From a virus (taxonomy: Duplodnaviria > Caudoviricetes), in the IMG/VR virus record IMGVR_UViG_3300025087_000689: 64,000 nt of DNA; one strand, given 5' to 3'. How positions within the stretch are numbered: the first letter of the stretch is position 1; each line of letters begins with the position of its first letter. Below, one piece after another: positions 2,683 to 55,389 of this stretch. The translations under genes and the position numbers were made by a program. The notes beneath the pieces are model-generated. The model saw nothing but the letters and a program-made list of their open reading frames with translations, was not told the DNA's origin and made no database searches.

Positions 2683-3392
2683 ACTGTATATATCTCCAAT
2701 GGTTTGAAATTAAAACTATCACTAGCTACAAAGATAAACTCTATTCCTTCATGTAAGCCAACATAAGCTTCTTGATTTTCTTTACCATGAAGATGTCCAT
2801 ATATACATTTTGAAACGTTATATGTCTTCATGATTTTTAGAATTTTATTATCTCCGCCAGTGTAAGATTTATGTATGGGTGGATAGTGTGATACTAATAT
2901 TCTTGTGGTGAATATTTGTGGTATTATCTTTAATGTATTTTCTAGTTTGATACATTCTTTATTATATCCTTTTCTGTATTCTTCTTTAAATTCTGGATGA
3001 GTTTCGTTCATATAGCCTTTGACACTCATAATAGCTATGGAATCATGAAGATTAAAATAATCATTTGATGTGAGAGATACTATTGTTTTGTAGTTATCGA
3101 ATAGGAAATCATTAGTTTTAGTTGCTGTTTGGTAATAAAAGTCATGGTTTCCTAGAGTAATAATCTTTTTACCGGGCAATGATTCAATAAAATCGAAATC
3201 TGGTTTTCCTTTATATATGTTCGACGACCAAGAAATATCACCGGCAATAATTACTATATCATCTGAAGATATATTTTTCCAACCATCCTGGATTCTTTCT
3301 ATATGATTTTCCCAAACACTTCCAAATTTAGACATGTTTTTTTCTGGATTAGCTATAGCTAAATGTAAATCACTTGTTCCCCACAACTTCAT
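2679..3392 (-). CDS. Calcineurin-like metallophosphoesterase
   Basis: SDLH, AGD, LGNHD, SHYPP, YGHLH motifs. Confidence 0.9.
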   Translation of the reverse strand: MKLWGTSDLHLAIANPEKNMSKFGSVWENHIERIQDGWKNISSDDIVIIAGDISWSSNIYKGKPDFDFIESLPGKKIITLGNHDFYYQTATKTNDFLFDNYKTIVSLTSNDYFNLHDSIAIMSVKGYMNETHPEFKEEYRKGYNKECIKLENTLKIIPQIFTTRILVSHYPPIHKSYTGGDNKILKIMKTYNVSKCIYGHLHGKENQEAYVGLHEGIEFIFVASDSFNFKPLEIYTV

Positions 3393-3850
3393 AATGGTAA
3401 CTCCAATATGAAATCTTTTGGATGTTCAGAAATATCATCTAATAATCCTAATTGTTCTATCATGGATATAATTTCATTGAGAACATAATTTCTATCTTTG
3501 AATGTATCAAGTCTACCCATACTCAAATTAATATTTCGATTTCCTGGTAACTTGAAATATTCTGGATCTTGTAAATCTCCCAAATGTGCACAATCAAAAC
3601 CAATCCATTTACCTTCGGGTAAAAGTATAGTGCATCTTTCTAGATCTTTATTTTCATATGTAATTCCACCATGAACATCGAGACTATTGCTTTCTTCTTG
3701 GAAATTAATATTGTATTTTTGATGATACCATGGTATAAATACATAACCACATAGAAAACCTATTTTATTATCTTTAATGCAGTAGAGATAGTTTTTTATA
3801 GTATTAAATTCTAACATTAGAACAACTCCAACTGGGGATTTATTTTCCAA
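3389..3850 (-). CDS. Conserved phage hypothetical protein
   Basis: VHGGITY..WIGFDCAHLGD motif typical of a phage DUF; true start probably downstream. Confidence 0.7.
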   Translation of the reverse strand: MENKSPVGVVLMLEFNTIKNYLYCIKDNKIGFLCGYVFIPWYHQKYNINFQEESNSLDVHGGITYENKDLERCTILLPEGKWIGFDCAHLGDLQDPEYFKLPGNRNINLSMGRLDTFKDRNYVLNEIISMIEQLGLLDDISEHPKDFILELPL

Positions 3851-6800
3851 TCGAAGATAGCAAATAACTTATCTATCTGTTCTAGATAGTATCTTTCATC
3901 AAGTTGATCAGCTGAGTCTACGTATTGTGATATAGTATAGTAGTGATCCTTCTTGCCTTTGTTTTCTTTCAGAGCTTCCTGTAATGCCTTACATGGTGGT
4001 GCTTTCTTAGTAACAAAGTAATCAACTTGAAGACCATCTTCAACTTTAGTCTTCAATCTTTCTTCAACCTGTAGTCCTACTACTCTTTGAAGGGACATAC
4101 CATTCTTGTAACCTTTAAGATCTTTGCTGAAGGTCACTCTAAATTTAAAGGCACTTAAAGGATATTGTTTGAGGTTTTTTAGTTTAGTTGCTGTTAATAA
4201 ATGATCAGTGACACTCTGATCAAGAGTCATCTGACAAACAGTATCAAGTATAGTGTCACAGACTCCGGCTTGTTTAGAAGATTTAAAAGCAACTCCATGT
4301 TTCTCAATAACAGTCTTACCCTTCTTGATCTTACGGATGGCATAGTTTTTCATACGGTAAAAATAACCATCAATGATCTCATCCTTATCAAGAGCCATAT
4401 AAGAAGTAACACCTTGGTTATCCTTAATGTGTTCAGCTATCTGTTTATTGATATTATCAATATCAACATCTTTATCAACTATCATACCATCTGTGTCAGT
4501 TCCTACAACACTTTCTCCTAGTAAACTTAAAGTAAATCTAGTGGTCCATCTACACATTCCTGTTATAGCTATAGCAGTAGCCATGTCTCCGTATGAAGTA
4601 AAAGTTGAACCTAACATTCCGAAAATACTGTTCATAACAACTTTTATAGCTATTTGCCGACTATCGTAAGCATCTGTTTCAGCTTTTGTTTTAGCTTCCT
4701 TAAGAAGTTGTTTTAATCTTGTTCGTTCGTTTGATAGTTTTTCTATCTCTTCTTTTAAGAAACCGATTTTGGACATGTCAATTGTTATTTCTATATTTTT
4801 ATTGAAATTTTGATCCGGTATATCTAAAATCATGAACTTGCTCTTGCGGTAGAAACTATACTTCCCAGTAAGTTCTTTAAGACCTGTAATTCTAGTTGTG
4901 TCTGGACCGAGATTCCAAGTTCGGATTGCGGAAGGATAATAAGAACTAAAATCCACTTTATATAAATTCTTTATATATCCAAATTTATGTGCTTCGACAA
5001 TAGCACCCTCAAATCTAGAACCAAGTGTATATATTCTTCCAGGTTCTATTTCACCTGTTGAATTTCCGTCCTCATCTTCTCTATTGTTTCCATATCTTTC
5101 TTTATTAGAATCTAATGGTATAAGATTTAATCGTTTACAATGACGAGCACATATAATCTTTGGAATGAAAGATGGAAAACAACCCACGATAGAACCAAGA
5201 GGAACCTGCATTAATTCAGCTAATGCTATAGCATTGGGTAAGTATACATCAGAAACCACCTTAGTAGCATTAACATCTGAAGTTAGGTACTCCCTTAGTT
5301 GTGGTGTTCCGATGAGTGCTTGTGTGTTTTCCACATCGTCTCCCAAAGATAAGGCTTGGAATCCATACCATGCTGAGACTGATTTGAGTCCTTTACTTTT
5401 TATTCCGCTGTTTCCACACCAAACAGGATAACCATTACGTCTAACTAGAATAATCTGATTAGGAACTGTACAACAATAGACTTTACCTTTATAATCTATC
5501 CAACTATCAGTTGGAATTCTACTGTTGATAGTTGGTGTTGTTTGTTTTTTTATTATCATTACTCTATAGATAAAAAACGTCTTATTATTTAAGGTGTTAG
5601 AATCTAAATGGATAGATGAAGCAAAACCTAATTTTATAATTATTTCCTGGACATCATTAGCAAGTTGTTTTGACACTGTAGAATATAATGTTGTTATGGG
5701 ATAATTATTTTTTATTTTATCTTTTGTACCATCACCTAACATTAAAGCTTTAAACAATATATCTAAAAGGTTCTTGTTTAAATTTAATAGATCTCTTGGA
5801 ATAAATTTATCGTGTGCTTTTCCAAATTGTATTAAGTATGATACGAGTTGTTTACTTTTAAAGTTAATATTTCCGTTTTTATTAATTTTATTAAAATAAT
5901 AATTGGATTTGAATCCAAGGTTATGAATACAAGCTCTGATTTTTTTGACGTTGTCAGGTGTTTTATTACTTTGAGCTATATTTATATTGTATAGTCCAAA
6001 TTCTTTATTAATATAACAAGAACCCTCAGAGATATAATAACCTAAAAACTCTAACCATATTTCTAACTTAAATTCGTTATTCTTCTTGAAATTAAATTCC
6101 ATTTTTTTTCTATGTATTTCAGGAAGCTGAAAAGACTTTTTATCTATTCCAATCCAATTACCTACAGATCTTTTGACTTTATATTTCTTATTGATTAATT
6201 CATCTGGTTTTTTAAATTCCCATATTTCTTCGTTATTATATCTTTTATCTTTTGGAAATTTTATAAAGAGGTCATGTGTTTTGGTTACTAATAAATCTAC
6301 AGATTTATTGTTGATCTTATACATTTTATTATCGTAGTTATAAGATGTATGTTCTATAGGTAACTGATACTCTAAAGTATCAGTATGTTCATTTAAAGTA
6401 GCTACTTTTTCACTTTCATTAATATCTTTGAATAATTTCCATCCAGTTTCACATAAAATTTCCGTCTGATCATCATAACACATAGATTGGTCTTTGCGTG
6501 CAGGTATTATACAGTCCAGATGCACTCGACCATTAAACTCAATACTGTCTTGACCTTCTTTGTAACGAAATTTGCCATATCTTCCTAACTGATCTAAGTC
6601 TATTCCATACTTCAACATCCTCTGGACTATATAAGGCAAGTCAAAGTTATGTCCATTATAAGTTACGATAACATCAGGATTAATTTGTCCATAATAACTA
6701 AGAAAGTCCAGAAGTAATTGGCTATCATTGCCTCTGGTGTAGTTGTCAAAAATCTGTACAGGGTTATCATTGTGTTTACATCCTATCGCTATGACGGGCG

Positions 6801-7200
6801 ATGTTTGAGGTCGCGGAAAGATACCATTCCCTTTAGTTAGTACTTCTATATCGAGGTACAACACATCTAATGGTTGTGTATTAGGAAATTGAAGTGGGTA
6901 GTCTGGTAAGTCTACAAAGAGTTGTTCTGTATAAGGTAACTTACAAAACAACTTACCTTCCATTTGTAACTGTTTAGCCTTCTCATCGTTGATCTGAACT
7001 GTCTCAGCTTCCATTTTGAACATGGTAGTCTCGACATTATCTGGCAGACGAATGGCTTTTATGTCTGTGGATTTTAGATGATGATTAGGCTTCTCAGCTA
7101 TAAGATATGGTTTGAATGGTAGAGGTCTCCTAATGATCTCTTTATTCACAGTAACAATAAGATTCTCACCGTAAGCATTGAATAGAAGAGGTACTCTCAT
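3817..7200 (-). CDS. polB: Family B DNA polymerase with intein
   Basis: ExoI YLDIE, ExoII YNGHNFD, ExoIII YLTSD; VDFSSYYPS, KVVMNSIFG, GTDTDG. Confidence 0.93.
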   Translation of the reverse strand: MRVPLLFNAYGENLIVTVNKEIIRRPLPFKPYLIAEKPNHHLKSTDIKAIRLPDNVETTMFKMEAETVQINDEKAKQLQMEGKLFCKLPYTEQLFVDLPDYPLQFPNTQPLDVLYLDIEVLTKGNGIFPRPQTSPVIAIGCKHNDNPVQIFDNYTRGNDSQLLLDFLSYYGQINPDVIVTYNGHNFDLPYIVQRMLKYGIDLDQLGRYGKFRYKEGQDSIEFNGRVHLDCIIPARKDQSMCYDDQTEILCETGWKLFKDINESEKVATLNEHTDTLEYQLPIEHTSYNYDNKMYKINNKSVDLLVTKTHDLFIKFPKDKRYNNEEIWEFKKPDELINKKYKVKRSVGNWIGIDKKSFQLPEIHRKKMEFNFKKNNEFKLEIWLEFLGYYISEGSCYINKEFGLYNINIAQSNKTPDNVKKIRACIHNLGFKSNYYFNKINKNGNINFKSKQLVSYLIQFGKAHDKFIPRDLLNLNKNLLDILFKALMLGDGTKDKIKNNYPITTLYSTVSKQLANDVQEIIIKLGFASSIHLDSNTLNNKTFFIYRVMIIKKQTTPTINSRIPTDSWIDYKGKVYCCTVPNQIILVRRNGYPVWCGNSGIKSKGLKSVSAWYGFQALSLGDDVENTQALIGTPQLREYLTSDVNATKVVSDVYLPNAIALAELMQVPLGSIVGCFPSFIPKIICARHCKRLNLIPLDSNKERYGNNREDEDGNSTGEIEPGRIYTLGSRFEGAIVEAHKFGYIKNLYKVDFSSYYPSAIRTWNLGPDTTRITGLKELTGKYSFYRKSKFMILDIPDQNFNKNIEITIDMSKIGFLKEEIEKLSNERTRLKQLLKEAKTKAETDAYDSRQIAIKVVMNSIFGMLGSTFTSYGDMATAIAITGMCRWTTRFTLSLLGESVVGTDTDGMIVDKDVDIDNINKQIAEHIKDNQGVTSYMALDKDEIIDGYFYRMKNYAIRKIKKGKTVIEKHGVAFKSSKQAGVCDTILDTVCQMTLDQSVTDHLLTATKLKNLKQYPLSAFKFRVTFSKDLKGYKNGMSLQRVVGLQVEERLKTKVEDGLQVDYFVTKKAPPCKALQEALKENKGKKDHYYTISQYVDSADQLDERYYLEQIDKLFAIFDWKINPQLELF
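5410..6480 (-). mobile_element. Intein (357 aa, LAGLIDADG-type) in the PolB exonuclease domain
   Basis: CYDDQTEIL..FLGYYISEGS..ALMLGDG..VWCGN|S. Confidence 0.9.
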
Positions 7201-8800: not shown

Positions 8801-10333
8801 TTAAATATCTAATAACTTATAAACTTGTCTACCTTCACTATGTTCATCACATAATGTTCTTATCCATCCACCTGCTCGAAGGATACCAGGTTTACCACAC
8901 TGTTCGCAGGTTACTTCTGACTTAGCTTCGCCTTCGTTGATGATGTTATATACTATATCTATGTCTTCTTTGCTCGTACCAGCAGCAAAATCAACATAAT
9001 ATCTTAAAGAATTACCACAAAAGTAATGTTTACCTTCTCTTCTAACTAAAAGAATATTTTCTGGCACTGATACGCAATATACCATATCATCGTAATCAAT
9101 CCATTCTTCTCTATATGATTGAGATGAGTTTTCCTGATATTTTTTCTTATTCATTGTATTATGAAAGTTAGTTTTTGTCATCCAATTAATAGCATACGAT
9201 GTATGTTTACCATTAATTATAATATCTTTTCCTTTATGTGTAGAAGGTGGTATTTCTTTATATATAGTTGATGAATTGCCACACTTAATAATTAGTTCTT
9301 GAACGTTATTAATTAATGTTTTACTAGTTGAATATAGCATATTAGCTGTTTTAGCTTTATGTCCATCTCCTAAATATAATTCAGTTAAAAAATAATTTAT
9401 TAATTCAGATGTTAAATGTTTTATAAATTCTGGAACTTTTTTATTTGGTGCTAAATGACCACAATTTTCTTTAAGCCAAGTTCCTAAAATAGTATTATAT
9501 ATTCGTATAATACCACCCTTACAAAGCTTATGTTTTAATTCTAGCTTATCTAATATTGATTCTACTCTTAAAATTTCTTTTGTATTTTTGTAATTTAAAC
9601 ATAAACTAATATTATTTTTATGATAGTGACCTTCTGCTATGTACCAGCCTAGTAATTGTAAGAATGGAATGATATTATAAATTTGATGGTTATATTCGTA
9701 GGTTCTTTTTACCTTCCTATTTATAGAATCGGTATAGTTATCAGTTCTTGTGTGTCCTTCAATACGATAACATTCAATAGATTTACCAGACCATGTACTA
9801 GTTTTCTTAAATCTTTTATTTTTCTTGAAATATTTTTCTGGAACGCATAACTCAAAAGGATAATCTCTTTTAATAACATTTCCTTTAATTTTGCCATTAT
9901 AATAACTACCTTTAGCACAGTATAGATTATGATTAGGTGTTACACAAAGGTTAACTTGTTTAGTATTTAAAAAATACATTAATCCTTTGTATTTATACTG
10001 TATCATATCCGACGGAATAACAAATTTTAATTCATCTTGATTAGATAATGAAGCAACCATATCTGTTGATTTTAAATCTTTAAAAAATTTCCATCCATTG
10101 TTAGTTAAGATTTCCGTTTTCTTATCATAACAACCAAATTTTTCTTTCACTTGGACTACAGTAACCTTAGTACTTGTGGCTGTTATGCGTTCACATATCT
10201 TCTTAATAAGAGCGAACCATCCATCATCTGGAAAGCCATAGCACATTAAACTGACTTGGTTACTAACATTCTTCCCATTAGGAAATAGATTAGGAAAAGT
10301 TGTGAATAAATAATCTTCTTTTTCTTTAGTCAT
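8801..10333 (-). CDS. Small conserved phage protein (136-aa extein, QVKEKFG-SLR..CEQCG..TLC) with intein
   Basis: Removing the intein gives DDGWFALI..QVKEKFG|SLRYY..TCEQCGKPG..GWIRTLCDEH. Confidence 0.85.
   Translation of the reverse strand: MTKEKEDYLFTTFPNLFPNGKNVSNQVSLMCYGFPDDGWFALIKKICERITATSTKVTVVQVKEKFGCYDKKTEILTNNGWKFFKDLKSTDMVASLSNQDELKFVIPSDMIQYKYKGLMYFLNTKQVNLCVTPNHNLYCAKGSYYNGKIKGNVIKRDYPFELCVPEKYFKKNKRFKKTSTWSGKSIECYRIEGHTRTDNYTDSINRKVKRTYEYNHQIYNIIPFLQLLGWYIAEGHYHKNNISLCLNYKNTKEILRVESILDKLELKHKLCKGGIIRIYNTILGTWLKENCGHLAPNKKVPEFIKHLTSELINYFLTELYLGDGHKAKTANMLYSTSKTLINNVQELIIKCGNSSTIYKEIPPSTHKGKDIIINGKHTSYAINWMTKTNFHNTMNKKKYQENSSQSYREEWIDYDDMVYCVSVPENILLVRREGKHYFCGNSLRYYVDFAAGTSKEDIDIVYNIINEGEAKSEVTCEQCGKPGILRAGGWIRTLCDEHSEGRQVYKLLDI
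9011..10132 (-). mobile_element. Intein (374 aa, LAGLIDADG-type)
   Basis: CYDKKTEILT..LLGWYIAEG..ELYLGDG..YFCGN|S. Confidence 0.9.
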
Positions 10334-12516: not shown

Positions 12517-12533
12517 AAGAACCATTTACATTA

Positions 12534-12946
12534 TGGAGACGGTGGGTCTTGCACCCACGTCCAAGATACATCTGTCATTCAATGAATTAACTTCGTATTC
12601 AGTTTTAAGTTCTGACAAACTAGGGGCGAGCGAGTTACCGCCTGCCCTCCACCACTAGTTTTTAAGGACTAGAAACCCGTTGCACTTATTTTAAAGAGTA
12701 GCATCACACTCCGTTTTGTTACTTTATGTTGCCAGGTTGTAACCACCCCGCTTGGTCTCGGCTGTTAAGCGTAGACAGATTCAGTGACGGTTTCGACCGT
12801 GAAGTCTTCTCCGTCCATGAAACAAGCGAACTTAGAATTGTTAGATTCGTCTGTTCTGTTTTGATGGATAGTTTTAAAAGGCCAACCATCATCCTTTGAA
12901 GCCATTGAAATCCGTCAGTTACTTGTCGAAACTAAATTACGTCCCC
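12534..12946 (-). ncRNA. ssrA: tmRNA (413 nt); tag frame 12851-12765 = (A)DESNNSKFACFMDGEDFTVETVTESVYA*
   Basis: 5' GGGGACG..GTTTCGAC; 3' GTGGG-TGCAAGA-CCCAC-CGTCTCC-A; G3-U70 alanine determinant; internal ORF ends GCT TAA. Resume codon is inferred. Confidence 0.92.
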
Positions 12947-44346: not shown

Positions 44347-45016
44347 TTTTATTCCTTATTCTAGTCATATGAACACTAGCGTAATCATTGGTATTCATAC
44401 CCAAGATTTTCCCTTTCCACTCTTTCATTTGTTTCTCTGAGAGTGGACGTTTGAACATAAGGCTAGTTACTACGTAAACCTCAGCGTTACGCGGATTCTC
44501 CAGTACTGCTGCTGGTCTTATCTTTATCCTCACTTTGTATTTTATCATCAATTACCTCTATTTTATATGTTTTGAGAACTTGTATAAGCATCTCCAATCT
44601 TTGGAGAGTACCAATACAGTTTGCTATTAACATTGCAGTACCAATGACAAAAAAAACTTTCGCGATTGATACAGATGTAAATACTGTAAGTATAACACCT
44701 GTACATAATAGTAACCACGCAAAAGTATAACCCATGAGAAAATCCCAGATTTGACAAAATGTTTTCATCGTAACTCCTTTACTTCATTCTCAAGTGTTTT
44801 GATATGTTTTTCCCATCTATCCATGAAGGATGATGGAGCACCTAATTCTTTTAATCGAAGTACGAAACGTTTAGTGTCCCGTATTTCTTTATAGGTGGCT
44901 TCTTTCCAAGCTTTAGGAAATAAAAACTTTAATATTTTTAGATGTGGTTTCATATAATTTAAACAGTCTCCGGGGTGAGATTTGAACTCACAAGCCCTTA
45001 AGGGCAACGGATTTTA

Positions 45017-45759
45017 CTTACTCATCTTACTTTCGTAAGCCTCTTACGAGTTTGAGTTTGGACTATATCTTAGCCGTATCTTTCGAGTTAGGCTTTCCGG
45101 GCGTAGTCTCTGAACCTTCCTCATTTGAAAGAGGCTCGGCTGCTGATTGTCCAATATCACTTATTTTTATAACCTTCGCACTCGTTTTTTCAAACCATGC
45201 TGTAGTTAAGTGATCTCTTAGGATATTCCAGCAATTTTCGGAATTACTACTATGATTTTTCAACCATAGCGACCAATGATGTTCGATATGTCTATGTAGA
45301 GCTCCATGTGATCTACGATCCATTAGACTTAGATTATTTGGTTCATTGTTTGTTGGATTATAGTCTAGATGATGTGTTACAAATCCTTTTGGAGTTGTAA
45401 TACCAAGTTGATCTATAATCTTTCTTGCTTCGTATCTTCCATGCTGCCTAATAGGATCATTTTTATGAATCTTACTTGGTCTGCATTTTGCATGAGATAC
45501 TTGGCCAATTCTCCAAATCTTCATGTCTTTCTTACAGATAGAACATTTTGATATACCAAAGTAATGTCTTCCTACTTTCTGGTATCTGATTCTTGCTCTT
45601 TCTGTATTGTAGGTTCTAGAGTGTTCTAGACATCTTTTTCTTTCATGAACACCTTTTTTTCCACAATCAATACAGAGTTTATCTTCCTTCTTCATATAAT
45701 ACCTCCATAGATATTATACTTTGTTGGAAGACACAATTCAAGTATAATTGTGGAGAATC
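45017..45759 (-). mobile_element. Group I intron (743 nt) between tRNA positions 33 and 34
   Basis: 5' exon ends in U, intron ends in G; P AATTGCTGGAATATCC, Q CAATCAGCAGCC, R TCAGAGACTAC, S AAGATATAGTCC. Confidence 0.92.
45063..45695 (-). CDS. Intron-encoded HNH homing endonuclease that reads through the ribozyme core
   Basis: THHLDYNPTNNEPNNL..H..LH; stop codon lies in the S element. Confidence 0.88.
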   Translation of the reverse strand: MKKEDKLCIDCGKKGVHERKRCLEHSRTYNTERARIRYQKVGRHYFGISKCSICKKDMKIWRIGQVSHAKCRPSKIHKNDPIRQHGRYEARKIIDQLGITTPKGFVTHHLDYNPTNNEPNNLSLMDRRSHGALHRHIEHHWSLWLKNHSSNSENCWNILRDHLTTAWFEKTSAKVIKISDIGQSAAEPLSNEEGSETTPGKPNSKDTAKI

Positions 45760-46068
45760 AGTCCGTTGTGTATGCCAGTTCCACCACCCGGAGGTTAATT
45801 TTGTCGATTGTATTTATTTAACTTGTTACCAGAAACATATGTTGTATCATCTTCTTGTCCAAGAAAACTTCTGATTCTATATATACCATTATCATCTAGA
45901 CATCGTACAAAGGCTATAGGAAATCTTGCTTTATACATCTCAGTCTGTATAATAACACATAAATGAGATGTAGTGTCCCACTGCATCCTTTGTTCCTGAT
46001 AATGTTTCTGTTCTCTTGTAGGTTTTTTACACAACCTATTAAAAGAATAATAAGAATTAAAAGGTATT

Positions 46069-55317: not shown

Positions 55318-55389
55318 TCCGACTGCAGGAACTTGCATCCTGTTATTAGGTCCCACAAACCTATGCATTACTATATATGCTACAGAAGG
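55318..55389 (-). tRNA. Degenerate tRNA-His(GUG)
   Basis: TAGGT-TTGTGGG-ACCTA; two acceptor mismatches, D-loop lacks GG, T-loop TGCAAGT. Confidence 0.55.

Follow-up and report, generated by a model that had tools for sequence, protein, structure and literature searches.

The window, a stretch of 64,000 nt from a virus of the Caudoviricetes (IMG/VR record IMGVR_UViG_3300025087_000689), carries on its minus strand a tRNA-Leu(UAA) gene (45793..44967) that is interrupted by a 743-nt intron (45759..45017). When introns are allowed, ARAGORN calls tRNA-Leu(taa) with i(35,743) at exactly 45793..44967 (-), and the rejoined exons, 84 nt in length, are folded by the same program into a type II tRNA-Leu(UAA) with a long variable arm. 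The spliced anticodon loop reads CU|UAAAA, with the intron between U33 and U34, and this junction alone gives a 7-nt loop together with a U at -1 and a G at omega. A sequence-only reading of the same DNA had placed an HNH-encoding group I intron at this very position of a phage tRNA-Leu(UAA), and both the ARAGORN junction and the resulting loop confirm it. Among the Leu codons in the large ORFs of the window, UUA ranks first with 34%; a second tRNA-Leu(UAA) was looked for in the window and none was found. The features of the locus are collected in Table 1.

The surrounding gene content includes a DNA polymerase, a helicase, a UvsX-like recombinase, two ligases, at least 15 tRNA genes, and a tmRNA, and DNA of the window is contained in groundwater and soil metagenome runs, with no RNA run among those listed. 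The phage tmRNA gene lies amid tRNA genes at window 12531-12946 (-) (Rfam RF00023, 57 bits; cut-off 47), and a tRNA at window 55318-55389 (-), scored at 40 bits in Rfam, is absent from the ARAGORN list. Internal stretches of the DNA polymerase ORF (1127 aa, 3817-7200 (-)) match the PHROG categories 'ribonucleotide reductase' and 'thymidylate synthase', as do internal stretches of a PhoH-like ORF (510 aa, 8801-10333 (-)); such matches would be expected if inteins common to those families were present in both.

Table 1. Features of the interrupted tRNA-Leu(UAA) locus (window positions; strand as given)
Feature	Position	Strand	Basis
Interrupted tRNA-Leu(UAA) gene	44967..45793	-	ARAGORN -i and ARAGORN on spliced sequence
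Exon 1; 3' end ...ACGGACU; U33 = 45760 = -1 uridine	45760..45793	-	
Group I intron, 743 nt, from G45759 to omega-G = 45017	45017..45759	-	
Promoter-like TTGAAT-17-TATAAT, inside the P1 loop	45713..45741	-	consensus match only
11-bp hairpin	45694..45719	-	fold
HNH_3 endonuclease ORF, 210 aa, within the P1 loop and onward through the guide and P2 to P8	45063..45695	-	
Internal guide GGUC, the P1 3' strand; pairs exon GACU, with G.U33 at the splice site	45271..45274	-	
P2 hairpin, GAAA tetraloop	45251..45268	-	7/7 pairs compensatory
P3 5' strand 45243..45239; P4 45233..45228 / 45146..45141	within 45141..45243	-	
P5 45223..45221 / 45152..45150; P5a/P5b extension with GAAA loop 45214..45156	within 45141..45243	-	
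P6	45114..45140	-	
P7 5' strand GACUA 45108..45104; P7 3' strand UAGUC 45065..45061	within 45061..45108	-	
P3 3' strand CGGAA 45099..45095; P8 45094..45072	within 45061..45108	-	
P9 three-way junction: P9, P9a (GUAA loop), P9b (GAAA loop), then AAG with omega-G	45020..45057	-	
Exon 2; 5' end UAAAAUCCGU; U34 = 45016; discriminator A = 44967	44967..45016	-	

Group I covariance models had been proposed with the sequence-only reading as a check on it. When a short stretch is searched, Rfam RF00028 matches 45309..45036 (-) over model positions 1-253 with 58.0 bits (cut-off 50, E 7e-14), a score that upholds the assignment; the intron is absent from a gathering run of Rfam over the whole window with default filters. 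The P, Q, R, and S core elements that had been recognized by eye are also present, and 68 of the 69 pairs of the family consensus are canonical in the window copy. Here, the family is a set of 24 distinct introns, assembled from look-ups of HNH homologues and pattern scans of IMG/VR.

An RNAalifold analysis of 23 family members, aligned from the guide through the 3' splice site, recovers P2, P3, P4, P5, P5a, P5b, P6, P8, P9, P9a, and P9b unprompted, with compensatory changes in 43 of the 64 pairs. Canonical pairs fill 98.2% of the cells, as opposed to 32-42% after a shift of the 3' partners by 1-3 columns. Within the P7 pseudoknot (GACUA/UAGUC), three members exchange a U-A pair for C-G. The P3/P7 pseudoknot and the P3 to P8 core helices of the RF00028 class are present and supported by covariation; furthermore, U45760 stands opposite G45274 and G45017 is the final base of the intron, providing the -1 U and the omega-G of a group I intron. 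P2, P5b, and P9b end in GAAA or GNRA loops. In a wastewater metagenome (run X13), a 237-nt contig matches the core at window 45064-45298 with 11 differences, which indicates a close relative of the intron in a different habitat.

The HNH reading frame and its start

The protein encoded within the intron matches Pfam HNH_3 (PF13392) with 25.7 bits (cut-off 24.8) and a PHROG HNH family at E 2.6e-7. Residues H108, H109, N117, N121, H130, and H134 are invariant among HNH proteins that are 33-76% identical. The match to the solved I-HmuI structure (1u3e) is marginal, with an E value of 0.2 and restricted to the motif, and a Foldseek search with the AF2 model of the HNH protein returned no PDB match at E <= 0.001.

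The ORF had been described as reading through the catalytic core and stopping in S, and this is indeed the case: its UAG stop codon (45065..45063) lies inside GAUAUAGUCC, the P7 3' strand or 'S' element. The last ~60 residues of the protein are encoded by the ribozyme core, and the near-invariant C-terminal motifs ENCW, DIGQSAAEPL, and EEGSET are conserved RNA elements in translation. The stop lies in the P6 loop, P7', or P9, depending on the family member. In the AlphaFold model (pLDDT 78), residues 153-177 nevertheless form a helix and a strand predicted with confidence, and consequently this stretch may serve RNA and protein alike. With an ORF that runs through the core, a conflict between translation and RNA folding is to be expected.

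Upstream of the ORF, a GGAGG sequence (45706..45702) is positioned 6 nt ahead of the ATG. The ORF had been credited with its own promoter and Shine-Dalgarno (SD) sequence; the SD is there, but the promoter is unproven. With 6 promoter-like sites as against 3.9 +/- 1.9 in shuffles, the region shows no enrichment, and the putative promoter consequently counts as a consensus match only. The TATAAT box belongs to the 5' arm of the predicted hairpin at the start of the ORF, and some of the SD lies in the 3' arm along with the AU of the ATG. In long transcripts, this hairpin could occlude the SD, and comparable start-occluding hairpins are found in about half of the relatives. The intron nucleases of phage T4 are silent from long transcripts, and a transcript start internal to the intron frees the ribosome-binding site. 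By analogy, the arrangement in the window would fit the T4 scheme.

A family of introns at two adjacent positions

A contig of 221,625 bp is the recorded source of the HNH protein, which has 75 relatives at 33-76% identity. Ten homologues were looked up; DNA was obtained for eight, and every one of these is encoded within a split tRNA-Leu(UAA). Nearly all of the 24 introns are found on large phage contigs of 40-390 kb with tRNA arrays. The IMG/VR scan with the HNH protein gave a core-encoded match only, no relatives were reached via a PurA-like neighbour in the IMG/VR scans, and a tblastn search of 50,697 deposited phage records with the HNH protein found nothing. In the same records, blastn finds core matches of 72-74% only, in protein-gene introns.

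The family occupies two sites. Ten of the 24 introns, including that of the window, follow U33 (exon ...GACU|, then G|UAAAAUC), and the other 14 follow U34, the cyanobacterial site (exon ...GACUU|, then G|AAAAUC). The guide, which sits directly 5' of P2, differs accordingly. It is GGUC in all ten U33-site introns, pairing with exon GACU and placing a G opposite U33; in 13 of the 14 U34-site introns it is GAGUC or GAGCC (GAGYC), pairing with GACUU and placing a G opposite U34. The exception, L218, has a divergent guide, GAGCG. Thus, the form of the guide matches the splice position in 23 of 24 relatives, and the additional guide A of the U34 line accompanies the additional exon nucleotide. This correspondence gives independent support for the P1 assignment and for both junctions. 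P1 is short, consisting of four exon pairs plus 0-3 intron pairs, and in the window it must form over ~485 nt. In the ORF-less L038, it is a minimal hairpin, GACUU|GUUUCUACAAAU-GAGUC; the minimal P1 of ORF-less members indicates that the nuclease gene fills the P1 loop in those members that bear an ORF. A P10 was also sought, and no consistent pairing was found in the family.

The U33 and U34 introns are two sister lines whose insertion sites in the anticodon loop differ by one nucleotide. In a tree built from the N-terminal region of the HNH proteins, which is outside the ribozyme-encoded part, the U33-site proteins form one clade with support of 99/98. The tree contains 18 ORF-bearing introns; B_L231 and the members with absent or decayed ORFs are omitted, two of the 18 rows (B_L225 and B_L232) are an unrelated nuclease that sets the root of the drawing only, and B_L026 is shortened at an early motif match. 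Given this clade, a single change of site suffices to explain the distribution. It can be tentatively proposed that one lineage of intron plus nuclease shifted its splice site by one nucleotide (U34/A35 <-> U33/U34) through a one-base change of the guide between GAGYC and GGUC, a proposal whose chances appear nearly balanced but fall somewhat on the negative side. If it is true, the sister lines occupy adjacent bonds of one gene and are mutually exclusive, and they represent a natural, datable case of group I site migration, most simply by reverse splicing after mutation of the guide.

Family members also differ in the state of the nuclease gene. The ORF-less introns are 256-324 nt long, and a U33-line member on a 265-kb IMG/VR contig (L031:2112-2675 (-)) is 480 nt long and retains an intact core with a 32-codon remnant of the HNH gene. 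In two U34-site introns (L225 and L232), an unrelated 157-aa ORF (ending ...CPNCHAQTDTY...) stands in place of the family HNH protein, which suggests that the nuclease has been replaced within an otherwise conserved intron. Intronless tRNA-Leu(UAA) genes with a 23-nt junction identical to that of the window are present on 43 IMG/VR contigs, and targets are therefore plentiful. Taken together, the intact HNH gene of the window, the decayed or absent ORFs, the exchanged nuclease, and the identical intronless targets lend indirect support to the initial suggestion that the intron is mobile. The same suggestion spoke of an invasion of a phage tRNA; the case is not a one-off, the window intron being one member of a large family with a sister line at U34/A35.

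The family also bears on annotation. In U34-site introns, ARAGORN chooses a junction one to three bases off, and for this reason the genes of L009, L043, L217, L225, L231, and L038 are labelled tRNA-Phe(gaa), tRNA-SeC(tca), or tRNA-Tyr(gta). Standard annotation thus misses such tRNAs or assigns them a wrong anticodon or junction. Several further contigs were noted along the way. In a MAG labelled Gemella sp., contigs C133 and C280 (L039, L044, L046-L050) have seven group I matches, carry a tRNA array and an ORF-less tRNA-Leu intron, and resemble phage DNA that was binned with a bacterium. The tRNA layout and intron length of L037, which comes from a 'Rhodobacterales' MAG, are identical to those of the phage-like contig of L010. 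On L001 (IMG/VR, 35 kb), five Rfam group I matches of 46-67 bits fall within ~3.1 kb (2952-6091), and some gene there would appear to be heavily interrupted.

Proposed splicing and homing, and alternative explanations

These findings lead to a model in which the locus is very probably a functional homing-type group I intron in a phage tRNA-Leu(UAA); splicing, the target of the nuclease, homing, and regulation are predicted here from sequence. In this model, the pre-tRNA would be part of the transcript of the tRNA cluster on the minus strand. The guide GGUC (45274..45271), located ~485 nt downstream of the 5' splice site, would pair with exon GACU, and U33 would form the G.U wobble of P1. Folding of the core from P2 to P9 would then permit attack by guanosine after U33, and omega-G45017 would next direct ligation of the exons. 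The product would be a normal tRNA-Leu(UAA) with the loop CUUAAAA, able to read the commonest Leu codon of the phage. The HNH product is predicted to nick or cut the intronless tRNA-Leu(UAA) of co-infecting phages, whereupon repair would copy the intron in. The hairpin that occludes the SD may restrain translation that would otherwise unfold the ribozyme, and a transcript from the internal promoter-like site would lack the 5' arm of this hairpin.

Other explanations of the locus have to be considered. The intron might be a vertically inherited passenger that still splices but is no longer mobile, its HNH protein being inactive or having another role, for example as a maturase-like helper acting via the core-encoded C-terminus. 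Such a protein role would be in keeping with residues 153-177, which are modelled as a confident helix and strand even though the RNA core dictates the last ~60 residues, and loss of mobility would be in keeping with the result that DNA contigs of four runs contain no intron-minus joint of the same phage across the intron. The varying position of the ORF stop over the family is another point in its favor. However, the HNH catalytic residues have remained invariant despite the divergence of the proteins, and the loss, decay, and replacement of the ORF within the family are what a selfish nuclease predicts. Furthermore, the intron is scattered across many unrelated large phage contigs, and it is absent from many phage tRNA-Leu genes that have the same target. 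An immobile passenger is therefore improbable. It is less likely still, to the point of being hard to credit, that the intron is unspliced, or is spliced at another junction, and that the locus is a decaying remnant of a dead tRNA gene. The short, long-range P1 and the failure of the whole-window Rfam run to report the intron could be taken in this sense. However, the core of the window copy retains nearly all of its consensus pairs, the -1 U, the omega-G, and a matching guide are all in place, the ORF is intact, and the gene is the sole tRNA-Leu(UAA) of a window that relies on UUA for 34% of its leucines.

A different question is whether the intron is a displaced cyanobacterial or plastid trnL(UAA) IC3 intron, slid by one nucleotide, rather than an independent acquisition. 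The host gene is identical, and the sister line is inserted at U34/A35 with a guide (GAGCC/GAGUC) that is like the cyanobacterial UGAGCC and is likewise followed by a P2 GAAA hairpin. In addition, the P9/P9a/P9b layout resembles that of Anabaena by eye. For comparison, 63 distinct trnL introns of cyanobacterial type were collected from metagenomes by means of a block confirmed in a published paper's supplement, and all 63 have the form GGACUU|...G|AAAAUCC with the guide UGAGCC and then the P2 GAAA hairpin. Nevertheless, the guide is set by the shared target, so that its likeness in the U34 phage line is expected by convergence. In nhmmer searches, the phage family and the cyanobacterial trnL introns score at most 29 bits in either direction, as opposed to the 75-120 bits that the family profile attains on 16 IMG/VR phage introns outside tRNA genes, in protein genes; the 3' domain alone reaches at most 8 bits on the cyanobacterial introns. 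An exact 25-nt P5'-P4'-P6 block is common to the family and those 16 introns. The contrast in scores supports the view that the family arose from the pool of phage introns, independently of the cyanobacterial lineage, and displacement of an IC3 intron is unlikely, though not to the degree of the two preceding alternatives. The sequence-only reading had regarded the intron as independent of the cyanobacterial/plastid one, and this view is sustained by the scores and by an insertion site one nucleotide away.

If a functional homing intron is accepted as the preferred reading, the window locus and its relatives imply that homing introns in tRNA-Leu(UAA) are common among large phages. Sister lines at adjacent sites with matching guides would offer a natural system for the study of guide-set splice sites and intron movement, and the ORF that runs through the ribozyme provides a compact case of the same bases used for RNA structure and protein coding.

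Comparison with known introns

The nuclease of the Synechocystis tRNA-fMet intron, I-Ssp6803I, is of the PD-(D/E)XK type, not HNH. As far as the review describes it, that intron resembles the one in the window in being mobile, in having its own endonuclease, and in lying in a tRNA anticodon loop, and it differs in being bacterial and in another tRNA (Bonocora and Shub 2001, in PMC3984707).

The cyanobacterial trnL intron has in common with the window intron the host gene, the loop, a guide followed by a P2 GAAA hairpin, and GNRA-capped P9 hairpins at the 3' end, and its exact site is the one used by the sister line of the window's family. In contrast, it is inserted after U34, one nucleotide further 3', and has no ORF. 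The window junction, CU|UAAAA, is not the U34/A35 insertion of the IC3, Leu.3Ug lineage, nor is the window close to that lineage in sequence, in view of the scores above. A chimera, with a phage-type 5' half and a cyanobacterial-type 3' half, was considered and rejected; the 3' domain is weak on both types (<=14 and <=8 bits).

The HNH introns of phage protein genes (SPO1 I-HmuI, Bastille I-BasI, and Twort; PMC3984707, PMC11878797) are very similar in the half from P3 to P7, and they too have an HNH_3-type nuclease and an ORF that overlaps core elements. However, they differ in a P7.1/P7.2-like insert between P3' and P8, in a different P9, and in the placement of their ORFs. IA2-type P7.1/P7.2 elements are absent from all tRNA-Leu members, in which P8 follows directly after P3'. 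The insert and the different P9 of the protein-gene relatives indicate that the tRNA-Leu introns are not simply their copies.

According to a 2014 review, every phage intron known by then interrupted a protein gene, even though phages have many tRNA genes (PMC3984707). A search for later papers on group I introns in phage tRNA genes, with subscription journals outside its coverage, found none, and the phage tRNA-Leu intron family is apparently unpublished. In bacteria, an intron after U33 of tRNA-Leu has been catalogued as 'Leu.2Ug', and the seed alignment of that source includes a tRNA-Leu row, Eba21.Leu.2Ug (Williams, bioRxiv 2020, 10.1101/2020.01.27.920355). The window intron agrees with this class in position, since it is a group I intron in tRNA-Leu after loop position 2, that is, after U33, with U at -1 and G at omega. 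Since Leu.2Ug has already been catalogued for bacteria, the window locus is a further example and not a new kind. The class is defined by position only and drawn from bacterial assemblies. In the visible part of its seed row, Eba21 has a 4-nt P1 loop, GUCA, with no room there for an ORF, and a cyanobacterial-like core, AAAUUCGGGG...GAUCCCGAGC. The window intron differs from that visible row in its phage-type core, in the HNH gene that occupies its P1 loop, and in residing in a phage. What the present analysis adds to these known systems is the correspondence between guide and site within one family, a U33 line that forms a single clade, and the affinity of the core to the introns of phage protein genes.
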